Positions 18,181 to 46,994 are shown, counted from the stretch's first letter. The stretch is DNA of 64,000 nucleotides from an uncultured Candidatus Saccharibacteria bacterium (GCA_965230955.1 OZ246404.1:289184-353183), one strand, 5' to 3'. Translations and numbers: made by a program. Notes: generated from the letters alone by a model not told the origin.

Positions 18181-18336
18181 ATGACTGTCAAAAGTAAAAA
18201 TGACTTGGACAAAGTCCAGCTCTATATCCAAAAACTGCAAGAGATTAAAGGCTTCCTTCAGCAGGCCCACATTGAAGAACGAGAGGAAAAAGAAGGCCTG
18301 GATCTCCGAATCAATTGCTATTGGAATAACGTTTAA
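18181..18336 (+). CDS. Hypothetical small protein (51 aa) upstream of lexA
   Basis: ORF MTVKSKNDLDKVQLYIQKLQEIKGFLQQAHIEEREEKEGLDLRINCYWNNV, promoter upstream, GC hairpin (18341-18377) downstream. Confidence 0.35.
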   Translation: MTVKSKNDLDKVQLYIQKLQEIKGFLQQAHIEEREEKEGLDLRINCYWNNV

Positions 18337-18340
18337 TAAA

Positions 18341-18377
18341 CCAGGTGCGGCCTGCCGAATCGGCAGGCTGCCCCTGG
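18341..18377. repeat. GC-rich hairpin of the GCCGATTNGGC family: CCAGGTGCGGCCTGCCGAATCGGCAGGCTGCCCCTGG
   Basis: Near-identical to the hairpin at 2186-2222. Confidence 0.6.
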
Positions 18378-18391
18378 AACGGAATGATTTT

Positions 18392-19003: not shown

Positions 19004-19150
19004 CTTTCAAATAAAATGGTCGTTACCTGGAGACAAATAAACAAAAGCGAAGAAGTATCCGCCCCTCATGCTTTCCGAGTGTTCTTTTTCGGGCTATTGC
19101 TTGGCGGCTTAGTTGCTTCCATGGTTGCCTGGATTATTTGGCGATAAGAA

Positions 19151-19220
19151 GGGTCTTTAGTCTTTGGTCTTTTGACATTTAATATCCGGCTAAAGACTAA
19201 AGACCAACGACTAAAGACCA
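19151..19220. repeat. Heptamer (GGTCTTT/AGTCTTT) palindromic element immediately upstream of dinB
   Basis: GGTCTTTAGTCTTTGGTCTTTTGAC-loop-CTAAAGACTAAAGACCAACGACTAAAGACC. Confidence 0.6.
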
Positions 19221-19223
19221 ATT

Positions 19224-26339: not shown

Positions 26340-26415
26340 GGCGCCATCGTCTAGTGGTCTAGGACACTGCCCTCTCACGGCAGGAACCTGGGTTCAAATC
26401 CCAGTGGCGCTACCA
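26340..26415 (+). tRNA. tRNA-Glu (anticodon CTC)
   Basis: Cloverleaf GGCGCCA-TC-GTCTAGTGGTCTAGGAC-A-CTGCC-CTCTCAC-GGCAG-..-CTGGGTTCAAATCCCAG-TGGCGCT-A-CCA. Confidence 0.85.
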
Positions 26416-27871: not shown

Positions 27872-28954
27872 ATGTCGGATAATTTACCGGGACTTACTCA
27901 AATTTTGAAACAGATGTTTCGGCTATGGAGCCGAACCGGCTGGTCCGCCAAATGGCGGCTGGTCGTTTTGGGCTGGCATTTAAAACAAACGGAAAAACGG
28001 CGCCGTCAGCTCTGGCTGGAAAAAAAGCTTTTGGTCCCGATGGGTCTGGGTTTAAGCCCGACGATGAAATGCGATCTGGCTTGCCAAGGTTGTTACGCGC
28101 GTAACTATCCCCGTGGTCGGGAATTACCTCTGGCGGTTTGGAATCGGTTTCTCGGACAAGCCGTGGACTCCGGTGTTTTTTTCTTCGTGGTGACCGGGGG
28201 AGAGCCGCTCGAGCGTCCGGAGATTTTAAATTTGTTCGAAAATTATCCTTCGGCCTTGTTTTTACTGGTGACCAATGGCTTGAAAATAGATGAAACACTG
28301 GCATGCCGCCTGGCGCGTTTGGGGAATGTTATGCCGATGGTGAGTGTCGAGGGGTTTGAACCGGAGACTGATCAGCGCCGCGGGAAAGGAATGTATCGCA
28401 ATATCTTGAAGACATTGGAAATACTCAAGAAACAAAAAATATTGTTTGGGTTTTCCGCCACGGTGACCAAAAATAATGCGGCTGTTTTGGGGAGTGACCG
28501 ATTCATTGACGAAATGATTGACCGGGGCTGCACGGCCGGCTTCTATAATGATCTCATTCCCGTCCAAGCGGAAGATTTTTCTCTGCTTCCCGATAAATCC
28601 GCGGCGGAAAATTTCCGGTGGAACCTGAAAAATTGGCGTCAGCGGAAGCCGATTCTTTTGGTTCATTTACCGGATGATGAATATGATGAACAGGGCTTTT
28701 GCCGAGCGGTCCGTAGCGGAGCGATGCACGTCAATGCCCAAGGATTTGTTGAGCCTTGTCCTTTTGCCCATGTGGCACGGGAGAATATCAGCGACTGCTC
28801 TTTTGAACAGATTCTCGGCTCTCCTTTTTTGACGGCGATTCGTCAGCATCCGACAATGCTCAAGCAGGGCGATGTCGGTTGCGCGCTGGTGAGCAATCGA
28901 GCTGAACTGAATCTGCTGATGAAAAAACATCAGGCTCAGCCGACCGAGAAGTAA
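27872..28954 (+). CDS. Radical SAM protein with a C-terminal Cys cluster (SPASM/twitch-like)
   Basis: CxxxCxxC CDLACQGCY, glycine-rich VVTGGEPL, and C-terminal Cys in CRAVRSG...EPCPF...DCSF. Confidence 0.6.
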   Translation: MSDNLPGLTQILKQMFRLWSRTGWSAKWRLVVLGWHLKQTEKRRRQLWLEKKLLVPMGLGLSPTMKCDLACQGCYARNYPRGRELPLAVWNRFLGQAVDSGVFFFVVTGGEPLERPEILNLFENYPSALFLLVTNGLKIDETLACRLARLGNVMPMVSVEGFEPETDQRRGKGMYRNILKTLEILKKQKILFGFSATVTKNNAAVLGSDRFIDEMIDRGCTAGFYNDLIPVQAEDFSLLPDKSAAENFRWNLKNWRQRKPILLVHLPDDEYDEQGFCRAVRSGAMHVNAQGFVEPCPFAHVARENISDCSFEQILGSPFLTAIRQHPTMLKQGDVGCALVSNRAELNLLMKKHQAQPTEK

Positions 28955-31242: not shown

Positions 31243-31300
31243 TTGACAGGTGCCGGCGAATAACTATAATGAATTTAGCACTCACCGCTTTCGAGTGCTA
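31243..31300 (+). promoter_or_regulatory. hrcA promoter (TTGACA-N15-TATAAT) with a perfect CIRCE operator TTAGCACTC-N9-GAGTGCTAA (31274-31300)
   Basis: -35 at 31243-31248, -10 at 31264-31269. CIRCE TTAGCACTCACCGCTTTCGAGTGCTAA matches the HrcA operator consensus exactly. Confidence 0.85.
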
Positions 31301-31349
31301 ATAAAGGCCGCTGTCGCTTTACCTGAGCGGACATCGGCGGATAAACGAT

Positions 31350-32117
31350 ATGACTGATCGACAAAAAGCCATTCTGGGAGCGATTGTCCGCGAATATACC
31401 GAAACAGCGGAACCTGTCGGGTCAAAAGTGCTTGTGGAAAAGTACTTCTTTAAGCTCTCGCCGGCTACGATTCGAAATGAAATGAAAGTGCTCGAAGAAG
31501 AAAAATTCATTGAGCAGCCGCATACATCCGCCGGCCGGGTGCCTACCAGCCGCGGTTATCGATTTTTTGTCGATACCATGATCAATTATGTCGATCTGGC
31601 GCGGCGCGAGCAGGTTAAATTTGAAACCAAGTTAAAGCAGATTCGTCTCGGTTACGACCGGGTTTTGAAAGAAGCGGCGAATATGATGGCCAAAATTTCC
31701 GGTAACGCTGCCTTGACGGAGACGGACCGCGAACACGCTTTCTGTTCCGGTATCGCGAATTTGCTGCATTTGCCGGAATTTTCCAATGTGGAAAAGGCTT
31801 GCAAGCTGGCAGAAGTTTTTGAACGCTTGAGCGAAGAGATTCCGGAAATCGAGCACAAAAAACCGGCGGCCAAAACGGGTGAAGTGGTTGTCTATATCGG
31901 CGCCGAAACAAAATTAACCAAAGAACTGGATTGCAGCTTGGTGATTTCCAATTATCAATTGCCGTCGGGGGAGACGGGGCATATCGCTATTATGGGGCCG
32001 ACGCGCATGAAGTACGATAAAAATATTTCCCTGGTCCGTTATTTGTCCAAACTGCTGGGCAGCACTATTTTCCCGGTTTTAGCGATAGTCATTTTAGACG
32101 CGACTAATGTTATCTAA
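31350..32117 (+). CDS. hrcA: Heat-inducible transcription repressor HrcA (short form)
   Basis: N-terminal wHTH with SPATIRNEM; located upstream of grpE-dnaK behind CIRCE. Confidence 0.75.
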   Translation: MTDRQKAILGAIVREYTETAEPVGSKVLVEKYFFKLSPATIRNEMKVLEEEKFIEQPHTSAGRVPTSRGYRFFVDTMINYVDLARREQVKFETKLKQIRLGYDRVLKEAANMMAKISGNAALTETDREHAFCSGIANLLHLPEFSNVEKACKLAEVFERLSEEIPEIEHKKPAAKTGEVVVYIGAETKLTKELDCSLVISNYQLPSGETGHIAIMGPTRMKYDKNISLVRYLSKLLGSTIFPVLAIVILDATNVI

Positions 32118-32122
32118 TCAAT

Positions 32123-32623
32123 ATGGTTATCAAGAAACCCGCCGATGCTTCGCCGGCCGCTATGCGTAAATTGGAATCGGAACTGAAGAAATTTCGCGAT
32201 TTGGCTGAGGAAAATCTGCGTGGTTGGCAGCGCGCCCGGGCGGATTATCAGAACTTGCTCAAACAATCGGCGCGGGAAAAAGACGACTGGGTGAACACCG
32301 CCAACGAACAATTGATTCTGGAAATCTTGCCGGTGCTGGATAATTTCAATCATGCTCTCAAGCACTTGTCGCCGGAGGCCGCTCGGCAGGATTGGGTAAA
32401 AGGAATATTATTCATCAAAACTCAGTTGGAAAATGTTCTTTCGGCTCAGGGCGTTTCCCCGCTGAAATCATGGCATCAGCCGTTTGATCCGCATCGACAC
32501 GAAGCGGTGGAAACGGTGCCTGGCCCGAGAGAGTTAAAGGATAAGGTGGTGGAAGAACTGCAAAAGGGTTATTTGCGCCAAGGCCGAGTGATTCGGGCGG
32601 CGCGAGTGAAAGTAGGAGGCTAA
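32123..32623 (+). CDS. grpE: Nucleotide exchange factor GrpE
   Basis: Coiled-coil N-terminus and GrpE C-terminal beta domain; operon context. Confidence 0.8.
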   Translation: MVIKKPADASPAAMRKLESELKKFRDLAEENLRGWQRARADYQNLLKQSAREKDDWVNTANEQLILEILPVLDNFNHALKHLSPEAARQDWVKGILFIKTQLENVLSAQGVSPLKSWHQPFDPHRHEAVETVPGPRELKDKVVEELQKGYLRQGRVIRAARVKVGG

Positions 32624-32681: not shown

Positions 32682-34568
32682 ATGTCAAAAATTCTCGGAA
32701 TCGATTTGGGGACGACTTTTTCCGCCATGTCCGTCGTCGAAGGCGGTAACTCCAAAATTGTCGAAAACAAAGAGGGCAATCGTACTACTCCTTCGGTAGT
32801 GGCGATGAGCAAATCCGGCGAAAGATTGGTGGGCTTGGTGGCCAAACGCCAGGCGGCGACTAATCCGGAAAATACCATTTTCAGCGCCAAGCGTTTTATC
32901 GGCCGCCGGTATTCCGATCCGGAAGTCCAGCGCGATAAGGAGCTGGTGCCGTTTGAGGTTCGGGAAGGGCGAGATAACGGCGTCGAAATCAAAATGGGCG
33001 ATAAATGGTTTACCCCGCCGGAAATTTCTGCGATGGTTTTGCAGAAGCTAAAGGCCGATGCGGAAGCCAAGCTCGGGACTACGATCAAAGAGGCGATTAT
33101 TACCGTGCCGGCTTATTTCGATGATTCTCAGCGCCAGGCGACCAAGGACGCCGGCAAGATCGCCGGTTTTGACGTGAAGAGAATTATCAACGAGCCGACG
33201 GCGGCGGCGCTGGCTTACGGCTTCGATAAAAAGAAAAATGAAAAGATCGTCATCTACGATTTGGGCGGCGGTACTTTTGATGTCTCTGTCCTGGAAGTCG
33301 GCGATGATACGGTGGAAGTAAAAGCCTCGACGGGCGACACCCACCTGGGTGGCGATGATTTTGACCAGATGATCATGGGGTGGATTTTGGATGAATTCAA
33401 GAAAGATCAGGGAATTGATTTGAAAAAGGATCAGCAGGCTCTGCAACGCGTCAAAGAAGCGGCGGAAAAGGCCAAATGCGAATTGTCGACTACGAATGAA
33501 ACCGAAATCAATCAGCCTTTCATCACGGTGGATTCTTCCGGTCCCAAGCATTTGAACATGAAGCTCACTCGGGCGAAATTGGAAGAACTGGTGGCTGATC
33601 TGGTGGAAAAAACCATGATCCCTCTCAAGAAAGCTTTGGAGGAATCCAAATTAGATAAGAACCAGATTGATGAAGTGGTTTTGGTCGGCGGGCAGACTCG
33701 CATGCCGAAAATTCAGCAAGTGGTGAAAGAATTTTTCGGCAAAGAACCGAACAAATCGATCAATCCGGATGAGGTTGTGGCGCTGGGCGCGGCTCTCCAG
33801 GGCGGTGTGATGCAGGGAGATGTCAAAGATGTCTTACTGCTTGATGTCACGCCTCTGTCTCTCGGCATTGAAACGCTGGGCCGGGTTAATACGACGCTGA
33901 TCGGTAAAAATACTACTATTCCGACATCGAAAACCCAGATTTTTTCCACAGCTTCTGACAACCAGCCCTCGGTGGAAATAAATGTTCTCCAGGGCGAACG
34001 GCCGATGGCCGCGGATTGCAAATCTCTCGGGCGCTTTGTGCTGGATGGCATCCCGCCGTCGCCTCGGGGCGTGCCGCAGATTGAAGTTAAATTCGATATT
34101 GACGCCAACGGCATCCTGAACGTTTCCGCGCTGGACAAAGCGACCAATAAGAAACAGCACATCACTATTACCGCTTCTTCCGGCTTGACCGACGCCGAAA
34201 TTGAAAAGATGCGCAAAGATGCCGAAGTCCATGCCGGCGAGGATAAAAAGAAACGCGAATTGATCGAAGAAAAAAATAAAGCCGAATCTTTGATTTTTCA
34301 GACTGAAAAAGTTCTGAAAGATGCGGGCGGTAAAGTCGATGACAAGATAAAGAAATCTGTTCAGGAAAAGGTGGATGCCCTGAAAAAGGTCAAAGACGGT
34401 GACGATACGGAAAAGATAAAGAAAGCGGCGGATGAATTATCCGTTGAAATCCAAAAGGTCGGATCACAAATGTACCAATCCGCCCAGGGAGCGGCGGCGG
34501 GCAAGGGCGGTCAACCGGGGAAAGATGAACCGGTTCAGGGGAAGGTGAAGGACGACAAAAAGAAATAA
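32682..34568 (+). CDS. dnaK: Chaperone DnaK (Hsp70)
   Basis: [16 protein letters not shown], and full-length Hsp70 architecture. Confidence 0.95.
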
Positions 34569-34587: not shown

Positions 34588-34630
34588 GGTAGGGGCAGGC
34601 CCCGCCGATTCGGCGGGGGCCGCCCCTACC
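34588..34630. repeat. GC-rich hairpin of the GCCGATTCGGC family: GGTAGGGGCAGGCCCCGCCGATTCGGCGGGGGCCGCCCCTACC
   Basis: Nested perfect palindrome downstream of dnaK. Confidence 0.6.
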
Positions 34631-34651: not shown

Positions 34652-35608
34652 ATGACCATCGGCATCCCGCGCGCGGGACTTTACTATTTATATTATCCGT
34701 TTTGGAAAGCGTTTCTCGAAACGCTGGGTTTTACTGTTGTCTTGTCCGCTCCGACCAATCGCAATCTTTTGGAAGCGGGGTTGAAGGTGGCCAACAGCGA
34801 AACTTGTTTACCGATGAAATTACTGTACGGCCATATTCTGGATTTGCGCGGACGAGTTGATGCTGTTTTCTTGCCTCAAATGGATGAATGTCGTTGGGGA
34901 GAAGGCACTTACGGGACTTCGACTTACTTTTGCCCTTATTTTGTCGGTTTGGCGGATGTGATGGAAGCGGAATTTCCCGATCTGAAAATTTTGCGACCGG
35001 TCATGATGTTGCATGATAATGAGATAGTGTCCGAGACTTGGCTGGAATTCGGCCGTTCTCTCGGGAAAAAACCGGCTCTGGTGAAACAAGCCTTTGAAAC
35101 GGCGAATCGTGTTTATCGGTTATTTATCGACGAGCGCGAGAAACACAAACGGACGCCGATAGAAATTTTGGAGAAGCAGAAGCTGAACACGGGTAATTTT
35201 CGGAAGACGATTGCCTTGGTCGGACGTCCTTATCTCGTGTATGAAAGCGCGGCCAATTTGGAAATTATCAAAAAAATCAATCAGCGCGGCTATCGGGTCG
35301 AGACCATGGAAATGGTGTCCCTGGCCGACAGCCGGAGTGGTTTGCGGCAACTGCCTTATGCCCAGCGATCGCACTGGTACCAAACAAATGAAGAATACGG
35401 ATCGCTGATTCATTTTGGCCGGCGGTCCGATATCAAGGGAATCATTTATCTGGTGCCGTTCAATTGCGGTCCTGATTTCATGCTGGAAGAAGTTGTCATT
35501 TCCGACTTGCGTAAGCGAAAACCGGTGGCTATAATTTCCATCGATGAATCTACCGGCGAGGCCGGGCTGACGACGAGATTGGATGCCTTCCTTGATATGC
35601 TAAAGTAA
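34652..35608 (+). CDS. HgdAB/DUF2229-family subunit, set B subunit 1
   Basis: MTIGIPRAGLYYLYYPFWKAFLETLGFTVVLS; NSETCLPMKLLYGH; PFNCGPD; C-terminal IDESTGEAGLTTRLDAFLD. Confidence 0.6.
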   Translation: MTIGIPRAGLYYLYYPFWKAFLETLGFTVVLSAPTNRNLLEAGLKVANSETCLPMKLLYGHILDLRGRVDAVFLPQMDECRWGEGTYGTSTYFCPYFVGLADVMEAEFPDLKILRPVMMLHDNEIVSETWLEFGRSLGKKPALVKQAFETANRVYRLFIDEREKHKRTPIEILEKQKLNTGNFRKTIALVGRPYLVYESAANLEIIKKINQRGYRVETMEMVSLADSRSGLRQLPYAQRSHWYQTNEEYGSLIHFGRRSDIKGIIYLVPFNCGPDFMLEEVVISDLRKRKPVAIISIDESTGEAGLTTRLDAFLDMLK

Positions 35609-35612
35609 TTAT

Positions 35613-36773
35613 ATGATTTACGCTTCTTATCCGGCGCTCAACGAATACTTGGCCATGCGGGCTATGTTTCAATTTTTCGGCAAAAAATTTGCCGATTTGC
35701 CGCCGATTACCGATGAAATGCTGACCTGGGGTGAAGCCAAATCGCCGGAGTATGCTTGCTTGCCTTTTAAGATTTATCTCGCTTTTTGCCGGGAATTGGC
35801 TCGCCGAGGGATTAATGCTTTCTTTGTTCACGGTATCAGAAATATCCGCGCTTGCCGGTATATAGATTTATGGGAGGGAATTCAGAAAATAGTTCGGCGC
35901 GAGGGCTACCCTGATTTCACGGTTTATTCCTGGAGCGGTTATGGAGCGAAAAAATCATTCCAGACTTTACAAGAAATCATGGGCGGTCCGTCATACGCCA
36001 AAATGATTATCGGCGTTCTGGTATATTGCGCGACGCTTGATGCGACCGACCGTTTGAATGACTTGGCCAATGCCGCCCGGCCGCGGGAAATAATCGCCGG
36101 CAGCGTCGATAAGTGGCTGAGTGGCTGGCTGAAAAAGTTAGAAGCGGTTAATCGCAAAAGCCAACCGCCCCGGATTGTCGCGGCGGCTCGGAAGGATTTC
36201 AAAAAAATCAAACTGGATCAATCTCGTCCGATCGTTCGGGTGGCCTTGGCCGGTGATCTTTTCAAAATTCATGAACCGTTTTTCAATTTCGACACTATCC
36301 GGAAATTGAATCGTCTGGGAGTGGAGGTAAAACAGCCCCAGTCTTTTTCCCTGCTCTTCATGGGCGATAACAAAATTTGGCCGGGCGGTTATTATCATCG
36401 CCAAATCGCGAAATGCAAGAAAAAATCCAAGAAATATTTGAAATCCATCCCGGGCTCTTATTTGGATGTCGGCATCGGAGAAATTGTCGATCAATTGGAC
36501 GAGGGAGCGCAAGGCGTGGTGCATTTCCAATCTTTTGGCTGCATGCCCGATATTATGTTAAAACCGATCTTGGATCGGATCGCCAGAGATTATAAAGTTC
36601 CGATTATTCACTATATGCGCGATACTCATGCTTCGGACGCGGCCTACCAGACTCGTTTGGAAGCTTTTGCCGATTTATTAAAGCGAAAGGAACTAAATAA
36701 TAAAAATCAGAAGTACGAAATTAGAAATTCGAAACAATATTCAAATTCTAAGCACGGAAACCCCGGTGTTTAG
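35613..36773 (+). CDS. HgdAB/DUF2229-family subunit, set B subunit 2
   Basis: EYACLPFKIYLAFC; QSFGCMPD; DAAYQTRLEAFADLL. The C-terminal tail KYEIRNSKQYSNSKHG is encoded by a heptamer repeat. Confidence 0.6.
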   Translation: MIYASYPALNEYLAMRAMFQFFGKKFADLPPITDEMLTWGEAKSPEYACLPFKIYLAFCRELARRGINAFFVHGIRNIRACRYIDLWEGIQKIVRREGYPDFTVYSWSGYGAKKSFQTLQEIMGGPSYAKMIIGVLVYCATLDATDRLNDLANAARPREIIAGSVDKWLSGWLKKLEAVNRKSQPPRIVAAARKDFKKIKLDQSRPIVRVALAGDLFKIHEPFFNFDTIRKLNRLGVEVKQPQSFSLLFMGDNKIWPGGYYHRQIAKCKKKSKKYLKSIPGSYLDVGIGEIVDQLDEGAQGVVHFQSFGCMPDIMLKPILDRIARDYKVPIIHYMRDTHASDAAYQTRLEAFADLLKRKELNNKNQKYEIRNSKQYSNSKHGNPGV

Positions 36774-36824
36774 ACATTTTATTTATGATTTATGATTTGT
36801 TTCTGATTTCTAATTTCGGATTTC
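36715..36824. repeat. Heptamer (GAAATTC/GAAATTA) palindromic element overlapping the 3' end of gene 35613-36773
   Basis: ACGAAATTAGAAATTCGAAACAATATTCAAATTC ... ATTTGTTTCTGATTTCTAATTTCGGATTTC. Confidence 0.55.
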
Positions 36825-36852
36825 TTGCTTTATTTCATTAAAGAAATTAATT

Positions 36853-37833
36853 ATGCCTAAATCTTTTTTGGGAGTCGATGTCGGTTCGGTCAGTTGCAAT
36901 GTAATTGCGATTGATGAATCCGGTAAACTTTTAGCCAAAACTTATATTCGCACCCATGGCCAGCCGATTCAGGCGATCAAAAAAGGCGTGGCGGAAATTG
37001 AGCCGAAACTGAAAGATTATACCGTCGCCGGCGTAGGAACTACCGGGAGCGGCCGCAATCTCGCCGGAGTTTTGGTCGGGGCAGATGTCGTCAAAAACGA
37101 AATTACGGCGCATGCGGTCGCTGCCGCCAAAGAAATACCGGACGTGAGTACTGTTTTGGAAATAGGCGGCCAAGATTCAAAAATTATCATCCTGCGCGAC
37201 GGCATCGTGACCGATTTTGCTATGAATACAGTCTGTGCCGCCGGTACCGGCTCATTTTTGGATCAGCAGTGCGGTCGATTGGGAATTCAAATTGAAGATT
37301 TCGGCGATTTGGCCCTGCAATCAAAAACCAACGTCAATATTGCCGGCCGGTGCACGGTTTTTGCCGAATCGGACATGATCCACAAACAGCAGACCGGCGC
37401 CAGCCGCGAAGATATTATCCGCGGCTTGTGCGAAGCTCTGGTGCGCAATTACTTGAACAATGTCGCGAAAGGCAAGGATATCCAGGAAACGGTTGTTTTC
37501 CAGGGTGGAGTGGCCGCCAATAAAGGGATCAAAGCCGAATTTGAAAAGGCCTTGAAAAAAAAGGTGATCATTCCCAAAAACTTTGATGTTATGGGGGCGA
37601 TTGGTGCCGCAATTTTGGCGCAGGAATCGGCGCCGGTTCAGACAAAGTTCAAAGGTTTTAATATCGCCCAAACTGAATTCAAGACAACCGCTTTCCAGTG
37701 CCTCGATTGCGCCAATAAATGTGAAGTGGTGGAATTTCGCGAGAATGGCAAAGTTATTGCCCGGTGGGGTGACCGTTGCGGCAAATGGAGCGAAAATTTG
37801 GGCAAAAATCCGGCGGATAAAATAGAAAAGTAA
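36853..37833 (+). CDS. BadF/BadG/BcrA/BcrD-type ATPase (HgdC-like activase / archerase) with an extra C-terminal 4-Cys motif
   Basis: Acetate/sugar kinase fold motifs LGVDVGSVSCNV, VAGVGTTGSG, NTVCAAGTGSF and FQGGVAANKG; C-terminal CLDCANKCEVV...GDRCGKW. Confidence 0.7.
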   Translation: MPKSFLGVDVGSVSCNVIAIDESGKLLAKTYIRTHGQPIQAIKKGVAEIEPKLKDYTVAGVGTTGSGRNLAGVLVGADVVKNEITAHAVAAAKEIPDVSTVLEIGGQDSKIIILRDGIVTDFAMNTVCAAGTGSFLDQQCGRLGIQIEDFGDLALQSKTNVNIAGRCTVFAESDMIHKQQTGASREDIIRGLCEALVRNYLNNVAKGKDIQETVVFQGGVAANKGIKAEFEKALKKKVIIPKNFDVMGAIGAAILAQESAPVQTKFKGFNIAQTEFKTTAFQCLDCANKCEVVEFRENGKVIARWGDRCGKWSENLGKNPADKIEK

Positions 37834-37859: not shown

Positions 37860-38597
37860 ATGGAAGTTGCCGGCCGCGAAAAATTTACCACGTTAGTCAT
37901 ATTCCTGTTGTCGGTAATTATCGTTTTGGCGGGAGCGGTTGTTTTTCTCTGGCGGGCCGCCGATCAATCGTTGGTCAACCGCTCTAAACAAGCCGAAGCC
38001 AGCGTGGTCGGTGTCGTGGCTACTAAAAACGTTGAAGAATCGTCCGGTCTTTTCTTCGGCGGCGCGGTGAACAGCGATGTTTTGGAGGCGGCCGGCGGGG
38101 GGACGGGATTTTTTGTCAGCCCCGAAGGCTTAATCGCCACCAATGACCATATCTTGGCTGGAGAAAATTACACGGCTGTTACCGCGTCCGGAGAAAAATT
38201 TCCGGCTCGAGTGATCCGGCAGTTTCCCGAAAAAGATATCGCCTTTTTGAAAATAGACGGCGGTACTTGGCCGGCAGTGGAATTTAAATTGTTACCCCCG
38301 GTGGTTAAGGGACAAAAAGTTTTTTCCCTGGGGAATAGTCTCGGATACTATTCCGGCACGCTGCATACGGGCGTGGTTTCAGCGCCTAATCGAAGGATCG
38401 AGAAGAATGGCCTGTCTTTTGAGGAGATGGTTCAGGTGGAAATGCATATTGCCGAAGGTGATTCCGGTGCTCCGTTGTTTGACGAGACCGGTCGGGTGAT
38501 TGGAATGTTGACGGCCTTTGATGATCGAGCCGAGGGTTTGGCCTTTGCCATCCCCGGCCGCCGGATTGTCGAGGCTTTAGATCTTCTGGAAGAGTAA
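37860..38597 (+). CDS. Trypsin-like serine protease (S1C, no PDZ domain), membrane-anchored
   Basis: GTGFFVSPEGLIATNDHI (His), D, GDSGAPLF (Ser); N-terminal TM. Confidence 0.7.
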   Translation: MEVAGREKFTTLVIFLLSVIIVLAGAVVFLWRAADQSLVNRSKQAEASVVGVVATKNVEESSGLFFGGAVNSDVLEAAGGGTGFFVSPEGLIATNDHILAGENYTAVTASGEKFPARVIRQFPEKDIAFLKIDGGTWPAVEFKLLPPVVKGQKVFSLGNSLGYYSGTLHTGVVSAPNRRIEKNGLSFEEMVQVEMHIAEGDSGAPLFDETGRVIGMLTAFDDRAEGLAFAIPGRRIVEALDLLEE

Positions 38598-38633: not shown

Positions 38634-39896
38634 ATGGAAAATCAAACTGCTAATAATTTTTCCGCTTCCGGCAATGTTTCGGGCAACTTGCCTTCCGGCT
38701 CGAAGCCTAAAACTCCCTGGACGGGCGTGATTATTTTATCGTTGGTTGTCAGTTTTGTCGTCAGTTCCACGGTGGGGTATCTGACCGGCGGCAAAATCGG
38801 CAATCTATTCAATAAAAATTCGGTGCGGGGAGAGATTCCTGGATTGACCACGGTAGTCGATCAAGCGCAAGAGGAATCGGCTGTTATTTCCGCCGTGGAA
38901 AAAGCGCAGTCGGCCGTGGTGAGTATTGTAGTGACCAAGGATCTGAGCAAGCTGTATCAGGAAAATAATTCTTTTTCCCCTTTTATGTTCCAACTGCCGA
39001 GTTCCGGACAGGATCAAAAACAGGAAATCGGCGGCGGTACGGGTTTCTTCTTGAGTTCCGACGGATTGGTTTTGACCAACCGTCACGTGGTAGCTGATGA
39101 CACGGCCGAGTATACCGCGATCACCCCGGACGGTACCCGCTATGACCAGGTCAGAGTGCTGGCGCGCGATTCGGTTAATGATATGGCTTTGCTGAAAGTG
39201 GAGGGCGATAATTTTCCCACCGTTGAACTGGGTGATTCCAGCAATCTGAAAGTCGGCCAGACCGTTATCGCCATCGGCAATACTTTGGGCGAGTATCAAA
39301 ATTCCGTGACCCAGGGCATTGTGAGCGGTTTGGGAAGAAGTATCACGGCCGGCGGCAGTTATGGTCAATCCTCAGAACGTTTGACCGATATCATACAAAC
39401 CGATGCCGCCATTAATTCCGGCAATTCCGGCGGACCGCTGGTAAATCTGGCCGGGCAGGTAATCGGGGTTAATACCGCGGTGGATTTTTCCGGACAATCG
39501 GTGGGATTCGCTCTGCCGATCAATAGCCTAAAGCCTGAAATTCAAAGCGTTAAAGAGCAAGGCAAGATTATCCGTCCGTATCTCGGGGTGCGATATGTTT
39601 TACTGAATGATCAAATTTCCAAACAAAATAATTTGCCGGTGAATTACGGCGCTTTGCTGATTCGGGGGCAAAAAATTTCCGATCTGGCTATTTTACCCGG
39701 AAGCCCGGCCGATAAAGCCGGCCTAGAAGAAAATGACATTGTGCTGGAAATCAACGGCCAGCGTTTGGATGAAAATAACGACTTGACAGCCGAGATAAAT
39801 AAATTTAAGGTTAGCGATCAAGTCAAACTCAAGGTCTGGCATGACGGCAAGGAAAAAGAAGTAACGGTGAATTTACAGGAACGGCCCAATCAATAG
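38634..39896 (+). CDS. htrA: HtrA/DegP-family serine protease with PDZ domain
   Basis: GTGFFLSSDGLVLTNRHV, GNSGGPLVN, and PDZ segment ILPGSPADKAGLEENDIVLEINGQ. Confidence 0.8.
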   Translation: MENQTANNFSASGNVSGNLPSGSKPKTPWTGVIILSLVVSFVVSSTVGYLTGGKIGNLFNKNSVRGEIPGLTTVVDQAQEESAVISAVEKAQSAVVSIVVTKDLSKLYQENNSFSPFMFQLPSSGQDQKQEIGGGTGFFLSSDGLVLTNRHVVADDTAEYTAITPDGTRYDQVRVLARDSVNDMALLKVEGDNFPTVELGDSSNLKVGQTVIAIGNTLGEYQNSVTQGIVSGLGRSITAGGSYGQSSERLTDIIQTDAAINSGNSGGPLVNLAGQVIGVNTAVDFSGQSVGFALPINSLKPEIQSVKEQGKIIRPYLGVRYVLLNDQISKQNNLPVNYGALLIRGQKISDLAILPGSPADKAGLEENDIVLEINGQRLDENNDLTAEINKFKVSDQVKLKVWHDGKEKEVTVNLQERPNQ

Positions 39897-39902
39897 AGGG
39901 AG

Positions 39903-40136
39903 GTGAAGGTGAGACGAGATAAAATTTCGAAAGAAGAGTATCTAGCGGATCAGCGGGGCGGGGCAACACGATTGCGCTGGCGGGCGATACGGGCGCATTT
40001 TTCCGACAAGCCGGTAGAAGCGGCTCGCTTCTGCCTCCGGCATGGTCCCTGTCCGGAAATCATTTTTACCGGCCTGGAGTTCAATGACCCGGACTGGTAC
40101 AATGAATTTTTCATGGAGTATTTTCGACGGGCCTAA
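39903..40136 (+). CDS. Hypothetical small protein (GTG start)
   Basis: GAGGGAGG RBS; followed by hairpin GGGCCTAAAGC/GCTTTAGGCCC at 40130-40154. Confidence 0.3.
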   Translation: MKVRRDKISKEEYLADQRGGATRLRWRAIRAHFSDKPVEAARFCLRHGPCPEIIFTGLEFNDPDWYNEFFMEYFRRA

Positions 40137-40199
40137 AGCATCGCTTTAGGCCCTCAACCTTTTATTTTTTACCATTTTATCTGTTTAAACGCGGAGTCC

Positions 40200-41279
40200 A
40201 TGGCTAAAGATTATTACGAAATTCTAGGAGTTGCCAAAGACGCTTCCGATGACGACATCAAGCGGGCTTTTCGGAAACTGGCGCATCAGCACCATCCGGA
40301 TAAAAACGGCGGCGACGCGGAAAAATTCAAAGAAATCAACTCTGCCTACCAAGTATTGTCGGATAAACAAAAACGCGCGCAATATGACCAATTTGGTTCC
40401 TCCTTTGAAGGGGCGGGGCCGGGCGGTCCATCGGCGGGCGGTTTTGGAGGATTCGACTTTTCCAATTTCGGTGGCGCCGGCGGGGCGCAACAATTTGATT
40501 TTAGTGATTTAGGCGATATTTTTGGTGGCGTATTTGGTGGTCGGTCGCGTCGTCGATCCGGTCCGGTGCCGGGCGACGATATAGAAATGGTTGTCAATCT
40601 GGAGTTCATGGAAGCGGTTCAAGGGACTCAAAAACAATTACGCGTTTTTAAGCGAATGAATTGTTCCCATTGTCACGGAAATGGAGCGGAACCGGGGACC
40701 CCGATCGTGACCTGTACCGAATGCGGTGGGACCGGCCAAGTAACTACCGTTCGCCAAACTATTTTAGGCGCTTTTCAACAAGTCACTACTTGTCCCAAGT
40801 GTCGGGGCGAGGGAAAATCTGCTAAAAAACCGTGCCGGCAATGCGGGGGAGACGGCCGGGTGCGGGATTATGATACATTTACCGTGAAAATTCCAGCGGG
40901 TATTGATAACGGTCAGACTATTCAGCTCGACGGCCGCGGCGAAGCGGGCGAGAAGGGCGGGCCGGCGGGCGATTTATATTTGCGAATCAAGGTCAAGGCG
41001 CACGATGTTTTCCGCCGCGATGGTTTTGATATTTTTTCGCGCCAGCCGATAAGCTTCAAGCAGGCGGCGCTGGGCGATAGAATCACAGTGGCCGGATTGG
41101 AAGGGGAAGAGGAAATAAAAATCCCGGCCGGCACTCAGACCGGAACTGTTTTCAAACTGCGGGGAAAAGGGATTGTGCACCTGCACAGCACTCGGCGCGG
41201 CGATCAACTGGTGGAAGTGGTTTTGGTCACCCCCAGAAAACTGACTCGAGAACAAAGAAAAGGTCTGGAAATCTTATAA
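40200..41279 (+). CDS. dnaJ: Chaperone DnaJ
   Basis: J-domain [15 protein letters not shown] region, and four CxxCxGxG zinc-finger repeats. Confidence 0.9.
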
Positions 41280-41283
41280 ATAT

Positions 41284-41316
41284 AAAACAGCCCGTGTCTG
41301 ATCCGGGCTGTTTTTA
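41284..41316 (+). terminator. Rho-independent terminator AACAGCCCG-tgtctgat-CCGGGCTGTT followed by TTTTATT
   Basis: Perfect stem plus T-tract after dnaJ; also serves the convergent minus-strand gene. Confidence 0.7.
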
Positions 41317-42870
41317 TTGGGGCAGGATTAATCCCCGTCCCAGGATGATCAAAGCTGTCACCGCAATAAAGCAGTAAATAGTGAGCAGATAATATTTATC
41401 CTGAGCTTTAATTTCGCCGATCAGCCAATAAATGAAAAAGGCAAACAGAGCCGTGAAAATAAACAATATCCAACTGAAATATTGGTAGAGAATAAATGGT
41501 ACGGTGAGAAAAGAAATAGCGACAAGTATTCCGACCAGGCGATGGGTAATGGCCGGTGAAAATCGCCGGCTTAACAGTGACGGTATCGTATTGACGCGGT
41601 TGGCTGTATCGCCGGCGATATCTTTCAGGTCTTTCACGATGGAAACAATTGTGACCAGTACCAGTGTCATAAAAACCAGGGCCGGGGGAAAGCTTTGGAA
41701 ACTCTGCTCGGGCGAAAATACGGCAAACCCGGCCAGCAAGCAGATCAGGGCGGCCAGGGCGATGACAAAATTAGAAATCCCGGCGAGTTGCCGCAGGCGC
41801 AGGGGCGGGCAGGAATAAAGAAAAGTTAAGATTATAAAGGCGAGTAGCAACATAAAAAAGGTGTGACTGACATAGCCGGCCGCTCCCAAGGAAATGATGA
41901 TCAATATGGCCGCGCCCCACCAGTAATCAGCGGGAATCAATTGCCCGGTGATTAATCCCCGGTGCGGATTCGATACTTGATCGATTTTTCGGTCCATCAC
42001 GTCATTAACCAGCGCTGCTTGCCCCCAGGCGCCCAAAATAGAGCAGACGGCTAGGATCATAGTGAAAATTATGTCCAACGACCAATCGATTAGCGCTCCA
42101 TAATAAGCCAGGCTGATGGCGATTCCCAGTCCGAGAAAAACTATGTAAATCAGGCCGCGATTTAAACGGGCGTTTTTAAATACTTGTTTAAAGGTGTCGG
42201 GTTGGTAAAGGCGCAGGAAAATTACTACGGCCAGAACTAGTAATAAATAGAAAAAACCGCCGACCGAGATTGAGGTCAGTGGAAAGTTGGCCAAAGAGAG
42301 TCCATTGGATAATTTTACCAGTAGTATTGGAGCGACTCCGGCGATCATGATAATCAGGTAAACGAGGATGGAAGCCAGGATCGCCTTGATGATATTTTTT
42401 GCCACCAGGATGACATAAGTGAAACAGCCGGTCATTATGACCAGTAGTTCGGTCATGATGCCGATCGTGACGCCGGTTTGATGATTGGGTCCGCACATGG
42501 TCAAAAGAGCGGAGCCCAATTCCGCCCAGGAATTGGGCTGGCAGTAGGCGATATCCAATCCCCGGCCTCCCGATACCGCCAGGTCGATCACCGGGGGCAG
42601 TAAAATAATCAGCGAGCCGAGGGTGATAAATTTAAAAACTGCGCCGATCGGGTGTTTTGTGATCAGGTGCAGAGCGATGATAATTACCAAGAAAACTAGC
42701 AGATACCAGGGCAAGAAATGCAGAAAAATCTCAGGCGCGATTTCTAAGGTCTTGGGTGTCCGGTAGAGATCTGTATCGGAAAAGCCTTCGAGGATGTTGC
42801 GTAAAATAATAATACCCGGCAAAAGCAGGGCGTAGGGCCAGATATTTTTTGGGGAGAAGTTTATTTTCAT
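41314..42870 (-). CDS. Polytopic membrane protein: N-terminal membrane domain fused to a UbiA-family prenyltransferase domain
   Basis: About 14 TM segments; UbiA motif NDVMDRKIDQVSNPHRGLITG in the second half. Confidence 0.5.
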   Translation of the reverse strand: MKINFSPKNIWPYALLLPGIIILRNILEGFSDTDLYRTPKTLEIAPEIFLHFLPWYLLVFLVIIIALHLITKHPIGAVFKFITLGSLIILLPPVIDLAVSGGRGLDIAYCQPNSWAELGSALLTMCGPNHQTGVTIGIMTELLVIMTGCFTYVILVAKNIIKAILASILVYLIIMIAGVAPILLVKLSNGLSLANFPLTSISVGGFFYLLLVLAVVIFLRLYQPDTFKQVFKNARLNRGLIYIVFLGLGIAISLAYYGALIDWSLDIIFTMILAVCSILGAWGQAALVNDVMDRKIDQVSNPHRGLITGQLIPADYWWGAAILIIISLGAAGYVSHTFFMLLLAFIILTFLYSCPPLRLRQLAGISNFVIALAALICLLAGFAVFSPEQSFQSFPPALVFMTLVLVTIVSIVKDLKDIAGDTANRVNTIPSLLSRRFSPAITHRLVGILVAISFLTVPFILYQYFSWILFIFTALFAFFIYWLIGEIKAQDKYYLLTIYCFIAVTALIILGRGLILPQ

Positions 42871-44533: not shown

Positions 44534-44609
44534 GGGCCCTTAGCTCATCTGGTAGAGCGTTCCCATGGCATGGGAGAGGTGACCGGTTCGAGTCCGGTAG
44601 GGTCCACCA
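44534..44609 (+). tRNA. tRNA-Ala (anticodon GGC)
   Basis: GGGCCCT-TA-GCTCATCTGGTAGAGC-G-TTCCC-ATGGCAT-GGGAG-..-ACCGGTTCGAGTCCGGT-AGGGTCC-A-CCA; G3:U70 Ala identity pair present. Confidence 0.85.
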
Positions 44610-44686
44610 TGTATCATTCTTGCGCATAGCAGAAATGCAATGCCGATTGTAAGAACCTTTGAGCTATTTGATAATTTCAAGAAATT

Positions 44687-45229
44687 ATGGCAATACGAAT
44701 AACTTATTTTGTTCACGGAACAACGACTGATAATGAAAAAAATGTTTCATCCGGTTGGTTTGATGTGGAACTTTCAAAGCTCGGTGTCAAGCAGTCAATT
44801 GAGCTGAAAGATAAGATCAAGGATAAAAAATTTGATATTGTCTTTTGTTCTGACTTGAAGAGGGCGGTCGACTCGGCAAAGCTTACCTTTGAGGGACAAG
44901 TCCCAATTTTGCAAGAGAAGAGATTGCGGGAATGCAATTATGGCAAGTATAATGCTCAGCCATCTGAGATCGTTGAACCAATGCAGGAAAAAAGCATTTT
45001 CGAAAGATTTCCCGAAGGTGAAAGCTATGAAGATGTGAAATTGAGAATTGCTGATTTTCTAGAGTTTCTGAAAAAAAACTATGACGGGAAATCGGTTGCG
45101 ATCGTAGCCCACAAGGCACCACAACTCGCATTAGATGTTTTGCTGAAAAAGAAGACTTGGGAACAAGCTTTCGCAGAAGATTGGCGTAAACGAAAAGCTT
45201 GGCAGCCTGGCTGGGAGTATAATATCTAG
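44687..45229 (+). CDS. Histidine phosphatase superfamily protein (phosphoglycerate mutase-like)
   Basis: N-terminal ITYFVHGTTTDNE (RHG-like) and overall branch-1 layout. Confidence 0.5.
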   Translation: MAIRITYFVHGTTTDNEKNVSSGWFDVELSKLGVKQSIELKDKIKDKKFDIVFCSDLKRAVDSAKLTFEGQVPILQEKRLRECNYGKYNAQPSEIVEPMQEKSIFERFPEGESYEDVKLRIADFLEFLKKNYDGKSVAIVAHKAPQLALDVLLKKKTWEQAFAEDWRKRKAWQPGWEYNI

Positions 45230-45342
45230 AGCGTGATGTTTTCTATCGGGAAATATATAGTTATGTTAATTGAATAGTAGGAATTTGTGTTTCCTTGCCG
45301 GTGTCCATGAAAAAAGTTCGAACATCCTCCGCTAGGGACCAC

Positions 45343-45390
45343 CAGCCCCACACTCAAGTTTTTTTCAAAAAAAACTTGAGTGTGGGGCTG
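45343..45390. repeat. Perfect palindrome of the CCCCACACTCA family (copy 2)
   Basis: CAGCCCCACACTCAAGTTTTTTT-C-AAAAAAAACTTGAGTGTGGGGCTG. Confidence 0.6.
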
Positions 45391-45519
45391 GAAAACCAAA
45401 GTTCAAAGCTTAAAATTCAAAGGAAATTTAAAATACAAACTTCAAGTGGTTTTGAATTTTGAGTTTTGCACTTTAGATTTTCAGTCCGTCTTGGGCGGAC
45501 TGTCCATGGGCACATAGCT

Positions 45520-45622
45520 TCCTCTCTCGCGCTTACTTCGTTCGCGCTTCGTAGAACAGGCTGCTGGCAATCAACCAGCAACGGGCCTGCCCTACGAAGC
45601 TCTCGCGAAGCGAGAGCGTAGT
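45520..45622. mobile_element. Second MITE-like inverted-repeat element inserted immediately 5' of tRNA-Lys; flanked by a 12-nt direct repeat of the tRNA 5' end (GGGCACATAGCT at 45508-45519 and 45623-45634)
   Basis: TIRs CGCTTACTTCGTTCGCGCTTCGTAGAACAGG / CCTGCCCTACGAAGCTCTCGCGAAGCGAGAGCG; the right end is identical to the copy at 44496-44533. Confidence 0.5.
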
Positions 45623-45698
45623 AGGGCACATAGCTCAGTCGGTAGAGCAGCTCCCTTTTAAGGAGAAGGTCGCAGGTTCGATTCCTGCTGTGCCCACC
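45623..45698 (+). tRNA. tRNA-Lys (anticodon TTT)
   Basis: GGGCACA-TA-GCTCAGTCGGTAGAGC-A-GCTCC-CTTTTAA-GGAGA-AGGTC-GCAGGTTCGATTCCTGC-TGTGCCC-A-CCA. Confidence 0.85.
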
Positions 45699-45864
45699 AC
45701 GCCACATCCCGGCCAGAGCCGGGAGTGGAAATCTAAAGCTTAAAGTTTAAAATTCAAAGGAAATTCAAAAACCAAAGTCTAAAACCGATTTCATATTTAA
45801 ATTTTGATCTTCCTTTGAATTTTTTTCTTTAAACCTTGGACTTTCACCGACGGGCGGTTACCCC

Positions 45865-45940
45865 GGGCCCATAGCTCAGTTGGTAGAGCGCGCCCTTCGC
45901 ATGGGCGAGGTCAGCGGTTCAAATCCGCTTGGGTCCACCA
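45865..45940 (+). tRNA. tRNA-Ala (anticodon CGC)
   Basis: GGGCCCA-TA-GCTCAGTTGGTAGAGC-G-CGCCC-TTCGCAT-GGGCG-AGGTC-AGCGGTTCAAATCCGCT-TGGGTCC-A-CCA; G3:U70 present. Confidence 0.85.
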
Positions 45941-45988
45941 AACCGCGCGCCTGGAGTTTAGGCGAGGTCAGCGGTTACCAGAGATCCA

Positions 45989-46411
45989 ATGAACTTTCCG
46001 GAACCAAAAAATGATCGTATGGGAAAAAAGGTTAACAGGTATATTTTTTGGGCACCGAGAATATTTACTATAGTATTTATCGCGTTTTTGGCGATGTTTT
46101 CATTGGATGTTTTTGGAAATAATTATAGCTTGGGTGAACTGACATTAGGACTGTTCATGCATAATATACCGGGATTGATCTTGATAGTAATTTTGTTGAT
46201 TTCTTGGAAATATGAAATAGTCGGTGCCATCACTTTTATTCTGCTTGGCATCGTGTACATTGCCATGATTACTGTTGGTCGTACTGACATTGACCAGTCG
46301 TCGGTATTTCAAATATTGATTAATTCCTTAGTTATTTCCGGGCTGGCATTTCTTATTGGAATTCTGTTTTTCTTGGGCTGGAAGCAAAAGAAGAACTTGA
46401 CTGTAAGGTGA
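45989..46411 (+). CDS. Small integral membrane protein, function unknown
   Basis: Four TM helices; start uncertain. Confidence 0.35.
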   Translation: MNFPEPKNDRMGKKVNRYIFWAPRIFTIVFIAFLAMFSLDVFGNNYSLGELTLGLFMHNIPGLILIVILLISWKYEIVGAITFILLGIVYIAMITVGRTDIDQSSVFQILINSLVISGLAFLIGILFFLGWKQKKNLTVR

Positions 46412-46444
46412 TTTCAAATTTTAAAAACCAATCGAATTCGTTGT

Positions 46445-46861
46445 ATGGGTGATATCAAAAAAATCGGATTATTGGTACTAAATGCTTCGGGTGATAAATT
46501 TTTGGTTTGCGAAAAAGACAAAAAAGACGTCACCTCTGATTACTTGATGCCGGGCGGACAATTGGAAGAACAGGGCGATCTCGCTTGCTTGCGTCGTGAG
46601 ATCAGGGAAGAATTAAACTGTGCTATCAATTTTGATACCGTGCAATATCTGGGTTTGTATGAAGATATTGCCGCCGGATTTACTGATCGGCTGGTGAAAA
46701 TAAAACTATACAGCGGAGAACTGATTGGCCAGCCGGTGGCTTCTTCGGAAATCAAATACTTGCATTGGATTGGCCGATCAGATGCTGAAAACCAGCGGGT
46801 GTCGCCGATTATCAGGAAAAAGATTATTCCGGATCTGATAAAGAGAGATATCCTAAAATAG
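46445..46861 (+). CDS. NUDIX hydrolase
   Basis: Nudix box GGQLEEQGDLACLRREIREELN. Confidence 0.65.
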   Translation: MGDIKKIGLLVLNASGDKFLVCEKDKKDVTSDYLMPGGQLEEQGDLACLRREIREELNCAINFDTVQYLGLYEDIAAGFTDRLVKIKLYSGELIGQPVASSEIKYLHWIGRSDAENQRVSPIIRKKIIPDLIKRDILK

Positions 46862-46917
46862 CCGGATATCTTGTTTTTTCTGGGACTACAGAGGATAAAA
46901 TTCACATCTAAATTTTA

Positions 46918-46994
46918 GGGCGCATAGCTCAGTTGGTTAGAGCGCACGCTTCACACGCGTGAGGTCTCAGGTTCGAATCCTGATGCGCCCACCA
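46918..46994 (+). tRNA. tRNA-Val (anticodon CAC)
   Basis: GGGCGCA-TA-GCTCAGTTGGTTAGAGC-G-CACGC-TTCACAC-GCGTG-AGGTC-TCAGGTTCGAATCCTGA-TGCGCCC-A-CCA. Confidence 0.85.

Follow-up and report, generated by a model that had tools for sequence, protein, structure and literature searches.

Gene content of the locus

The stretch of DNA analysed in this study (hereafter the window) spans 64,000 nucleotides from an uncultured Candidatus Saccharibacteria bacterium (GCA_965230955.1 OZ246404.1:289184-353183) and carries, inside a heat-shock operon, three adjacent genes whose products are predicted to form an ATP-driven iron-sulfur reductase. These genes, referred to below as the trio, were found on the plus strand where a first-pass annotation of this DNA had placed them. 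Red1 (34652-35608; 318 aa) is a DUF2229 reductase subunit, Red2 (35613-36773; 386 aa) is a diverged paralogous reductase subunit corresponding to the PlsR-equivalent region, and Act (36853-37833; 326 aa) is an HgdC-type ATPase ('archerase') with a C-terminal 4-Cys module. The gaps inside the trio are 4 nt (Red1-Red2) and 79 nt (Red2-Act). All the motifs previously quoted for the three proteins were recovered, namely MTIGIPRAGLYY..., SETCLPMK, YACLPFK, FNCGPD, FGCMPD, DESTGEAGLTTRLDAF, CAAGTG and the additional C-terminal cysteine motif of Act (C283-x2-C286-x3-C290...C309). The organism had been treated as a member of the Candidate Phyla Radiation (CPR), and this origin is supported by the nearest homologues, which are annotated as Patescibacteria or Buchananbacteria.

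Our analysis confirmed every part of the surrounding operon as it had been proposed, i.e. an hrcA-grpE-dnaK...dnaJ unit, presumably controlled by the CIRCE operator (controlling inverted repeat of chaperone expression) in front of it, that includes the trio and two HtrA proteases, all on the plus strand. A sigma-70-type promoter (31243-31270; TTGACA-16-TATAAT, 12/12 consensus positions) is followed by a perfect CIRCE, the HrcA binding site (TTAGCACTC-N9-GAGTGCTAA; 31275-31301), which starts 4 nt after the perfect -10 box and is the sole CIRCE within 3 mismatches in the window. Next come the heat-shock repressor gene hrcA (31350-32117; Pfam HrcA, 80.7 bits), grpE (32123-32623; Pfam GrpE, 132.6 bits) and the open reading frame (ORF) of dnaK, encoding Hsp70 (32682-34568), whose orthologues in CPR loci L001-L009 are 67-90% identical and have HSP70 matches. 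Downstream of the trio, after 26 nt, lies a gene for an HtrA-like serine protease without PDZ domain (37860-38597; Pfam Trypsin_2, 102 bits; NCBIfam Do/HtrA models below their cut-offs) and, after a further 36 nt, one for an HtrA/DegP-type serine protease with PDZ domain (38634-39896; Pfam Trypsin_2 and PDZ_2; TIGR02037, 276 bits). The operon continues with dnaJ (40200-41279; Pfam DnaJ, DnaJ_CXXCXGXG and DnaJ_C) and probably ends at a weak terminator-like hairpin (41296-41308) followed by a T-run. The 303-nt spacer between the second htrA and dnaJ (39897-40199) contains a 77-aa ORF with a GTG start (39903-40136) that has no family match and may not be a gene; at this position other CPR loci have a DUF3467 gene or no spacer.

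The 83-nt spacer between dnaK and Red1 holds a GC-rich hairpin (34588-34630, plus strand; -44.1 kcal/mol, z = -5.65), which had been flagged earlier as a potential terminator separating the trio from the chaperone genes. It was confirmed as a strong structure, though it lacks a U-tract; it was not called as an intrinsic terminator, is not conserved in orthologue L001 and may act as an incomplete terminator or as a stem that stabilises the mRNA. No consensus promoter or canonical terminator was called on the plus strand from dnaK to dnaJ. An Rfam scan of the window returned five tRNAs only, with no riboswitch or leader near the trio. Judging from this layout, we consider it probable that the trio is co-expressed with the chaperones upon heat shock.

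Enzyme class and cluster ligands

Red1 matched Pfam DUF2229 (PF09989) across the entire profile (positions 1-218 of 218; 171.4 bits with a cut-off of 29.4; E = 2.8e-50), while Act matched BcrAD_BadFG (162.5 bits), the NCBIfam model TIGR00241 ('acyl-CoA dehydratase activase'; 186.2 bits vs a cut-off of 125.4) and the HgdC structure 1hux (E = 2.4e-37). In the profile searches suggested in the first-pass annotation, Red2 had sub-threshold Pfam matches only (DUF2229, 23.2 bits; HGD-D, 20.6 bits); many Red2 orthologues have precomputed PF09989 and/or PF06050 matches. Red1 and Red2 are paralogues (BLASTP E = 9e-10, 26% identity across the C-terminal half). The last ~24 residues of Red2 form a low-complexity, non-conserved tail (region 36700-36852, including the 79-nt gap to Act); Red2 orthologues stop earlier, and their gene overlaps the Act gene or sits a few nucleotides from it.

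The conservation of cysteines was assessed in family members gathered from 147 loci. C52, C94 and C272 of Red1, the putative [4Fe-4S] ligands, were invariant in all 139 relatives, as were C49, C81 and C310 of Red2 in 105/105 and C128, C167, C283, C286, C290 and C309 of Act in 95/95, a degree of conservation far above chance. C128 and C167 of Act align with the two cysteines in the CAAGTG and CTVFAES motifs of HgdC, the residues holding the [4Fe-4S] cluster at the dimer interface of that protein (1HUX). The invariance of the cysteines, together with the alignment of Act to HgdC, therefore lends good support to the frame of ATP-driven electron transfer. Three invariant cysteines per catalytic subunit fit one [4Fe-4S] cluster each, as in HadBC, and not a double cubane. 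In the work of Jeoung and Dobbek, the double-cubane [Fe8S9] cluster is said to take six cysteine ligands in one subunit; ligation of the kind seen in the double-cubane cluster protein (DCCP) is thus unlikely, because Red1 and Red2 each have just three invariant cysteines.

AlphaFold models of the single subunits also fall in the superfamily that had been claimed. For Red1 (predicted local distance difference test, pLDDT, 89.6) the top 10 PDB matches were DCCP, HadC, BzdO and MbdO, and for Red2 (pLDDT 87.1) the top 18 were all BzdNO, HadBC, DCCP or MbdON. These structures are the catalytic subunits of 2-hydroxyisocaproyl-CoA dehydratase, of benzoyl-CoA and 3-methylbenzoyl-CoA reductases (BzdNO, MbdON) and of the double-cubane cluster protein; the TM-scores lay between 0.5 and 0.6, and others did not rise above background. 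The structural check therefore upheld the superfamily, and the cysteine count spoke against an [Fe8S9] cluster. On the agreement of profile matches, PDB matches and models, it is very likely that the trio constitutes one enzyme system of the benzoyl-CoA reductase (BCR)/2-hydroxyacyl-CoA dehydratase (HAD) superfamily, with Red1 and Red2 as the reductase pair and Act as the HgdC-type activator.

A narrower reading would take the trio for a 2-hydroxyacyl-CoA dehydratase, a benzoyl-CoA reductase or a double-cubane protein in the strict sense, with CoA thioesters or small molecules as substrates. It would accord with the nearest solved folds (HadBC, BzdNO, MbdON and DCCP) and with the database labels, which read '2-hydroxyacyl-CoA dehydratase' or 'acyl-CoA dehydratase activase-related'. 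However, TM-scores of about 0.5-0.6 are modest, the sequence search of Red1 and Red2 against solved chains matched no HAD, BCR or DCCP chain, the HGD-D match stays below cut-off, the scores of the trio with the NCBIfam models for benzoyl-CoA reductase are far under the cut-offs, and each subunit has three invariant cysteines vs the six of a double cubane. We therefore regard this reading as very improbable.

Relationship to PlsA, PlsR and Ger

According to the first-pass annotation, machinery of this kind occurs in Firmicutes as large fused activases of unknown substrate. That view is out of date, since the fused Act-Act-DUF2229 proteins have meanwhile been identified as the plasmalogen synthase PlsA/PlsR and the glycerol ester reductase Ger, whose target is the ester bond at the sn-1 position of glycerolipids (PMC13159169; PMC12838417; PMC9702350). 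PlsA/PlsR of Clostridium perfringens and the single-gene PlsA of Enterococcus, Lactococcus and Bifidobacterium led to plasmalogen formation in E. coli (PMC12838417; PMC9702350), and Ger ('modified PlsA') of Thermotoga and Desulfatibacillum to 1-O-alkyl glycerol ethers (PMC13159169). Fused Act-Act-DUF2229 proteins in E. coli yield plasmalogens or alkyl ethers (PMC13159169; PMC12838417), the sn-1 ester being reduced. Listeria is also reported to have active PlsA orthologues (PMC9702350).

In the PlsA/Ger architecture, a pair of PF01869 ATPase domains is combined with a single PF09989 domain and a further reductase region. Listeria monocytogenes has a fused protein of 1475 aa with this architecture (Act-Act-DUF2229-Red2), found in a record mislabelled as a plasmid, which was used in our comparisons as a stand-in for the experimentally verified PlsA, PlsR and Ger. 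In BLASTP, residues 4-311 of Act aligned with Listeria residues 318-632 (32% identity, E = 3e-49), residues 2-299 of Red1 with 669-959 (27% identity, E = 6e-24) and residues 2-313 of Red2 with 1009-1354 (19% identity, E = 2e-4). All six invariant cysteines of Red1 and Red2 were matched, and the 4-Cys module of Act falls inside the alignment; in the fused PlsA-type protein, this C-terminal module (C283-C309 in Act) belongs to the second of the two ATPase domains. On this collinearity, we read the trio as a relative of the PlsA/Ger type that is divided over separate genes, arranged in another order and equipped with one ATPase instead of two.

The division into three genes had been presented as a peculiarity of this organism, which proved wrong. 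Only split forms were found among the matches listed in the first homologue search. An exhaustive HMMER search with Red1 returned 2555 clusters at E ≤ 1e-3, 264 of them at E ≤ 1e-30, and the best 150 of the 2555 were either stand-alone proteins (about 300-370 aa, with a few shorter ones that are probably partial) or Red1-Red2 fusions (about 670-770 aa). When the best 80 loci in GTDB species genomes were examined for gene order, nearly all of them, including many Firmicutes, presented the order Red1-Red2-Act, so the three-gene form is standard in a large clade. Desulfosporosinus, Desulfotomaculum, Pelotomaculum, Acetivibrio, Clostridium, Sedimentibacter, Orenia, Atribacterota, Actinomycetota and Chloroflexota are represented among these loci, whose Act, Red1 and Red2 proteins are 57-65%, 31-38% and 24-29% identical, respectively, to those of the window. 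Most of the longer metagenome loci also have the order Red1-Red2-Act.

Previous surveys were directed at fused proteins. The criteria of the Ger survey were at least 30% query coverage and E ≤ 1e-50 (PMC13159169), and since long coverage of a fused query is required, split genes would be missed. No Ger homologues in Patescibacteria were listed in one survey (PMC11868695). Our literature search found nothing relevant connecting the trio with sporulation or heat shock, nor Patescibacteria with plasmalogen or ether lipids.

Inteins were also observed in the clade. In several metagenome relatives, inteins with LAGLIDADG endonuclease domains interrupt both Red2 and Act (L136, 7927-12392; also L097, L098, L101, L103, L108, L109, L122, L127, L134 and L140). 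The inteins of Red2 and Act are inserted near the conserved cluster-cysteine motifs.

Genomic context across lineages

The synteny with dnaK and dnaJ that the first-pass annotation had proposed to check in related genomes was found to be preserved. In seven further CPR lineages the trio is located between dnaK and dnaJ (Red1 identities of 71, 59, 58, 54, 49, 48 and 45%), and the other genes inserted there vary by lineage, including HtrA, HIT, DUF3467, hsp20 or a 1403-aa protease. A perfect CIRCE is present upstream of hrcA in all five of the other CPR loci that hold hrcA (L001, L003, L004, L009 and L091). The dnaK-Red1 spacer is 7 nt in L001, the locus with the 71% Red1 orthologue, and 449 nt in L004, while in L003 and L006 other genes are found between dnaK and the trio.

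Outside the CPR, the neighbourhoods of 78 loci were examined. In 33 of them the trio directly follows co-oriented spoVA or sigF genes, with a gap of at most 35 nt in 15 of the 33. The order in spore formers is spoIIAA-spoIIAB-sigF-spoVAC-D-E-(EA)-(AF)-trio-...-lysA (L012-L085, e.g. L065 4411-12731), which suggests that in spore-forming Firmicutes the trio is an unrecognised extension of the spoVA operon. In another 3/78 loci (two Actinomycetota and one Bacillota metagenome-assembled genome) the trio is located within 1.5 kb downstream of clpB, in clusters of the dnaK-grpE-dnaJ-hspR-clpB type, and in two further Actinomycetota loci chaperone genes are present farther upstream in the flank; the chaperone-linked loci are L011 (700-13241), L016, L076, L050 and L046, their hspR gene is MerR/HspR-like, and the distance from the chaperone cluster down to the trio ranges from a few hundred bases to a few kb. 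About half of the 78 loci have no stress or spore neighbour, although some of these have short flanks.

It could be argued that the position within the chaperone operon is an inherited gene order without regulatory meaning, and that the trio is transcribed alone or shut off by the hairpin and is not heat-inducible. The strong hairpin in the dnaK-Red1 spacer would be in line with this, as would the 449-nt spacer of L004, the genes intervening in L003 and L006, the lack of a second CIRCE before the trio, and the share of non-CPR loci without a stress or spore neighbour. On the other hand, the hairpin is not followed by a U-tract, and the 71%-identical orthologue, with 7 nt between the two genes, does not have it; the spacer contains no consensus promoter; the arrangement has persisted in eight or more CPR lineages although the genes around it were reshuffled repeatedly; and in two other phyla the trio comes after stress or dormancy operons of a different kind, in many cases with no more than 35 nt in between. 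A meaningless inherited order thus seems unlikely to us. With three unrelated stress or dormancy gene sets placed before the trio in three phyla, a functional connection with heat resistance or dormancy is a better explanation than a frozen accident. This recurrent association of the trio with stress and dormancy operons is a feature that has not been reported before.

Proposed function and mechanism

By analogy with the characterised enzymes, we propose, with a probability of roughly 0.4, that the trio encodes a reductase, co-expressed on heat shock, by which the acyl ester at the sn-1 position of scavenged lipids is converted to an ether linkage. A homodimer of Act would hold a bridging [4Fe-4S] cluster on C128 and C167 and, upon ATP hydrolysis, would inject a very low-potential electron into a Red1/Red2 heterodimer, in which each subunit would hold a [4Fe-4S] cluster on its three invariant cysteines. 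The sn-1 acyl ester of membrane glycerolipids, which in the CPR bacterium would be scavenged from the host, would then be reduced to a vinyl-ether or alkyl-ether bond. Transcription would proceed from the CIRCE/HrcA-controlled promoter together with grpE, dnaK, the two HtrA envelope proteases and dnaJ, with the hairpin after dnaK probably reducing read-through without abolishing it, and ether-lipid remodelling would form part of the response to heat and envelope stress. A lipid substrate, which we put at somewhat less than even odds, is favoured because the only characterised DUF2229 enzymes act on glycerolipid sn-1 esters and because CPR bacteria, reported to be without lipid synthesis, appear to modify scavenged lipids (PMC7242380). 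It is also favoured by the envelope proteases in the same operon, the HtrA proteins being consistent with an envelope-directed function.

A number of observations weigh against this proposal. With regard to expression, there is the -44 kcal/mol hairpin between dnaK and Red1 in the window, no second CIRCE was found directly before the trio in CPR loci with long spacers, and the HspR operator (HspR-associated inverted repeat, HAIR, allowing up to 3 mismatches) was not found in the Actinomycetota loci. With regard to the substrate, Red1, Red2 and Act are only 27%, 19% and 32% identical, respectively, to the fused protein of the PlsA type, and the comparison relies on the Listeria protein standing in for verified PlsA, PlsR and Ger. 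The ATPase core of Act is nearer to the activators of amino-acid fermentation (43% identity to a Paraclostridium activase) than to the ATPase domains of PlsA. No fused Act-Act-DUF2229 protein is present among the best 150 of the 2555 Red1 clusters; such proteins thus appear to be more distant from the trio than expected, and since the trio is set apart as a separate clade its substrate may differ. Finally, no lipid-metabolism gene adjoins the trio in any locus examined, and the literature search found no paper on any member of the trio clade.

Several of these points are compatible with the same ATP-driven [4Fe-4S] reductase acting on a non-lipid substrate important for heat resistance or dormancy, in which case the trio would be a distinct sister of PlsA/Ger. 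The separation of its clade from the fused proteins, the low identity to the Listeria protein and the closeness of the Act core to HgdC/HadI-type activators all point in this direction. The same applies to the neighbourhoods, where chaperones, ClpB and the SpoVA dipicolinate channel are encoded and lipid genes are consistently absent, and to the two divergent reductase pairs of the window (the second is described below), which suggest more than one substrate. Nevertheless, glycerolipid esters are the substrates of every DUF2229 enzyme whose function is known, the genomes of CPR bacteria offer little choice of other plausible esters or thioesters, and no candidate molecule emerged from any neighbourhood examined. 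We consider a non-lipid substrate of this kind nearly as likely as a lipid.

Returning to the proposed lipid reductase, a broader and less likely extension would be that the trio is an unrecognised, widespread 'stress etherase', i.e. a PlsA/Ger relative in split form that was recruited three times, each time separately, to a programme of stress or dormancy and converts ester lipids to ether or vinyl-ether lipids on demand. In CPR it would belong to the HrcA heat-shock operon, in Actinomycetota to the HspR-type dnaK-clpB cluster, and in Firmicutes to the forespore spoVA operon. If this were true, lipid auxotrophs of the CPR would harden their membranes using lipids stolen from the host, and part of the spore or heat resistance of anaerobes would be explained.

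Bacterial ether and vinyl-ether lipids are central to the debate on the 'lipid divide' and to the lipid biomarkers of palaeoclimate research, and gene surveys seeking long fused PlsA/Ger proteins would overlook the split three-gene versions. Should the trio act on lipids, CPR bacteria, Atribacterota, many Clostridia and Actinomycetota would join the potential producers of ether lipids, and bacteria unable to make lipids would still remodel them, under the control of a chaperone operon. Should the substrate not be a lipid, the trio would nonetheless represent a conserved low-potential reductase that is driven by ATP and linked to stress and dormancy. Its repeated occurrence behind spoVA genes further suggests an unstudied function in sporulation, and Desulfosporosinus, Desulfotomaculum and Acetivibrio are culturable.

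Second reductase pair and other features of the window

A second pair of reductase genes is located upstream of the heat-shock operon on the plus strand. Red1b (15714-16616), a second DUF2229 subunit, is 30% identical to Red1, and its partner Red2b (16618-17709) is 25% identical to Red2 and 33% to Red2 proteins of Firmicutes. No activase gene belonging to this pair was found in the window, and Act may serve both pairs, with Red1b/Red2b as a second client. The metagenome relatives of Red1b/Red2b are mostly Red1-Red2-Act trios where the contig is long enough, and the closest of them adjoins a divergent hrcA-grpE-dnaK-dnaJ operon. Genomes with two reductase pairs and one activase, or with an extra Red2 after Act, were also encountered elsewhere (L036, L017 and L020); in L036 (4481-10254) both pairs and the single activase form one cluster (Red2-Act-Red1-Red2-Red1), and such clusters echo the situation in the window.

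Directly upstream of Red1b lie a gene for a 616-aa B12-binding radical SAM protein (13691-15541) and, before it, a gene for a beta-propeller protein (11729-13690). The former was considered as a conserved mark of a lipid cluster, in the sense of an Mss-like partner, and was rejected, as a weak B12-binding radical SAM neighbour was present in only 1/57 related metagenome loci; its NCBIfam matches (BchE, HpnJ and 'lipid biosynthesis B12/rSAM') were all far below the cut-offs. A 360-aa radical SAM/SPASM protein (27872-28954), which belongs to no specific family and is encoded upstream of a PGA_cap protein and a thioredoxin, was likewise discarded as a partner of the trio, given that no link was found; it is absent at this position in L001.

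Beyond the operon, a gene for a 518-aa UbiA-family prenyltransferase (41314-42870, minus strand) converges on dnaJ and is found at the same position in L001 with 68% identity; its best similarities, all sub-threshold, are to chlorophyll synthase and archaeal geranylgeranylglycerol-phosphate transferases. The window also contains a small SOS-type module (18200-20393), in which a LexA repressor gene is followed by a gene for a Y-family (IMS) DNA polymerase, and the five tRNA genes (26340-26415 and 44534-46994) for Glu-CTC, Ala-GGC, Lys-TTT, Ala-CGC and Val-CAC.

Comparison with known systems

The closest parallels to the trio in module content are PlsA/PlsR of C. perfringens (CPE1194/1195) and the single-gene PlsA of Enterococcus, Lactococcus, Bifidobacterium and Listeria. 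The trio matches these proteins in its set of modules, with the HgdC-type ATPase and the 4-Cys module behind it, the DUF2229 domain and the other reductase domain, and both would be oxygen-sensitive Fe-S enzymes of the type found in anaerobes. They differ in that PlsA/PlsR has two tandem ATPase domains fused to Red1, in the order Act1-Act2-Red1(-Red2), and Red2 is either part of the fusion or the product of the following gene, whereas the trio has a single stand-alone ATPase gene after the reductase genes and consists of three polypeptides in the order Red1-Red2-Act. Accepted orthologues are 41-55% identical to C. perfringens PlsA/PlsR (PMC12838417); between the trio and the Listeria stand-in the identity is 19-32%.

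Ger of Thermotoga maritima (Tmari_0479) and Desulfatibacillum alkenivorans combines, like the trio, PF01869 and PF09989 with short PF06050-like stretches, and in Thermotoga its role is tied to growth phase and temperature (PMC13159169; PMC8788747). However, Ger is one polypeptide described as B-B-D-(H/D)n (PMC13159169), whereas in the trio B (PF01869) and D (PF09989) are on separate proteins and there is a single B.

Regarding the systems that act on CoA esters, Act is a clear homologue of HgdC (1hux), the activator of HgdAB, with both cluster cysteines aligned, and the fold of HadB and HadC recurs in Red1 and Red2 along with their three-Cys pattern. In contrast, no sequence similarity of Red1 and Red2 to HadBC or HgdAB was detectable, Act differs from the activators HgdC and HadI by its 66-residue tail with four cysteines, a module that HgdC lacks, and CoA-ester metabolism is not represented in the neighbourhood of the trio. 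DCCP with its partner ATPase DCCP-R (PDB 6eno, 7yyl) resembles the trio in fold and in its ATP-dependent partner and is among the top structural matches, but it is a homodimer, and Red1 and Red2 have three invariant cysteines each and an identity of 12-14% in the structural alignments. With respect to gene organisation, the HrcA/CIRCE-controlled hrcA-grpE-dnaK-dnaJ operons of Gram-positive bacteria have the regulator gene, the perfect operator and the core gene order observed here, and the operon of the window differs from them in carrying five or six extra genes between dnaK and dnaJ, namely the trio, two HtrA genes and perhaps the 77-aa ORF.

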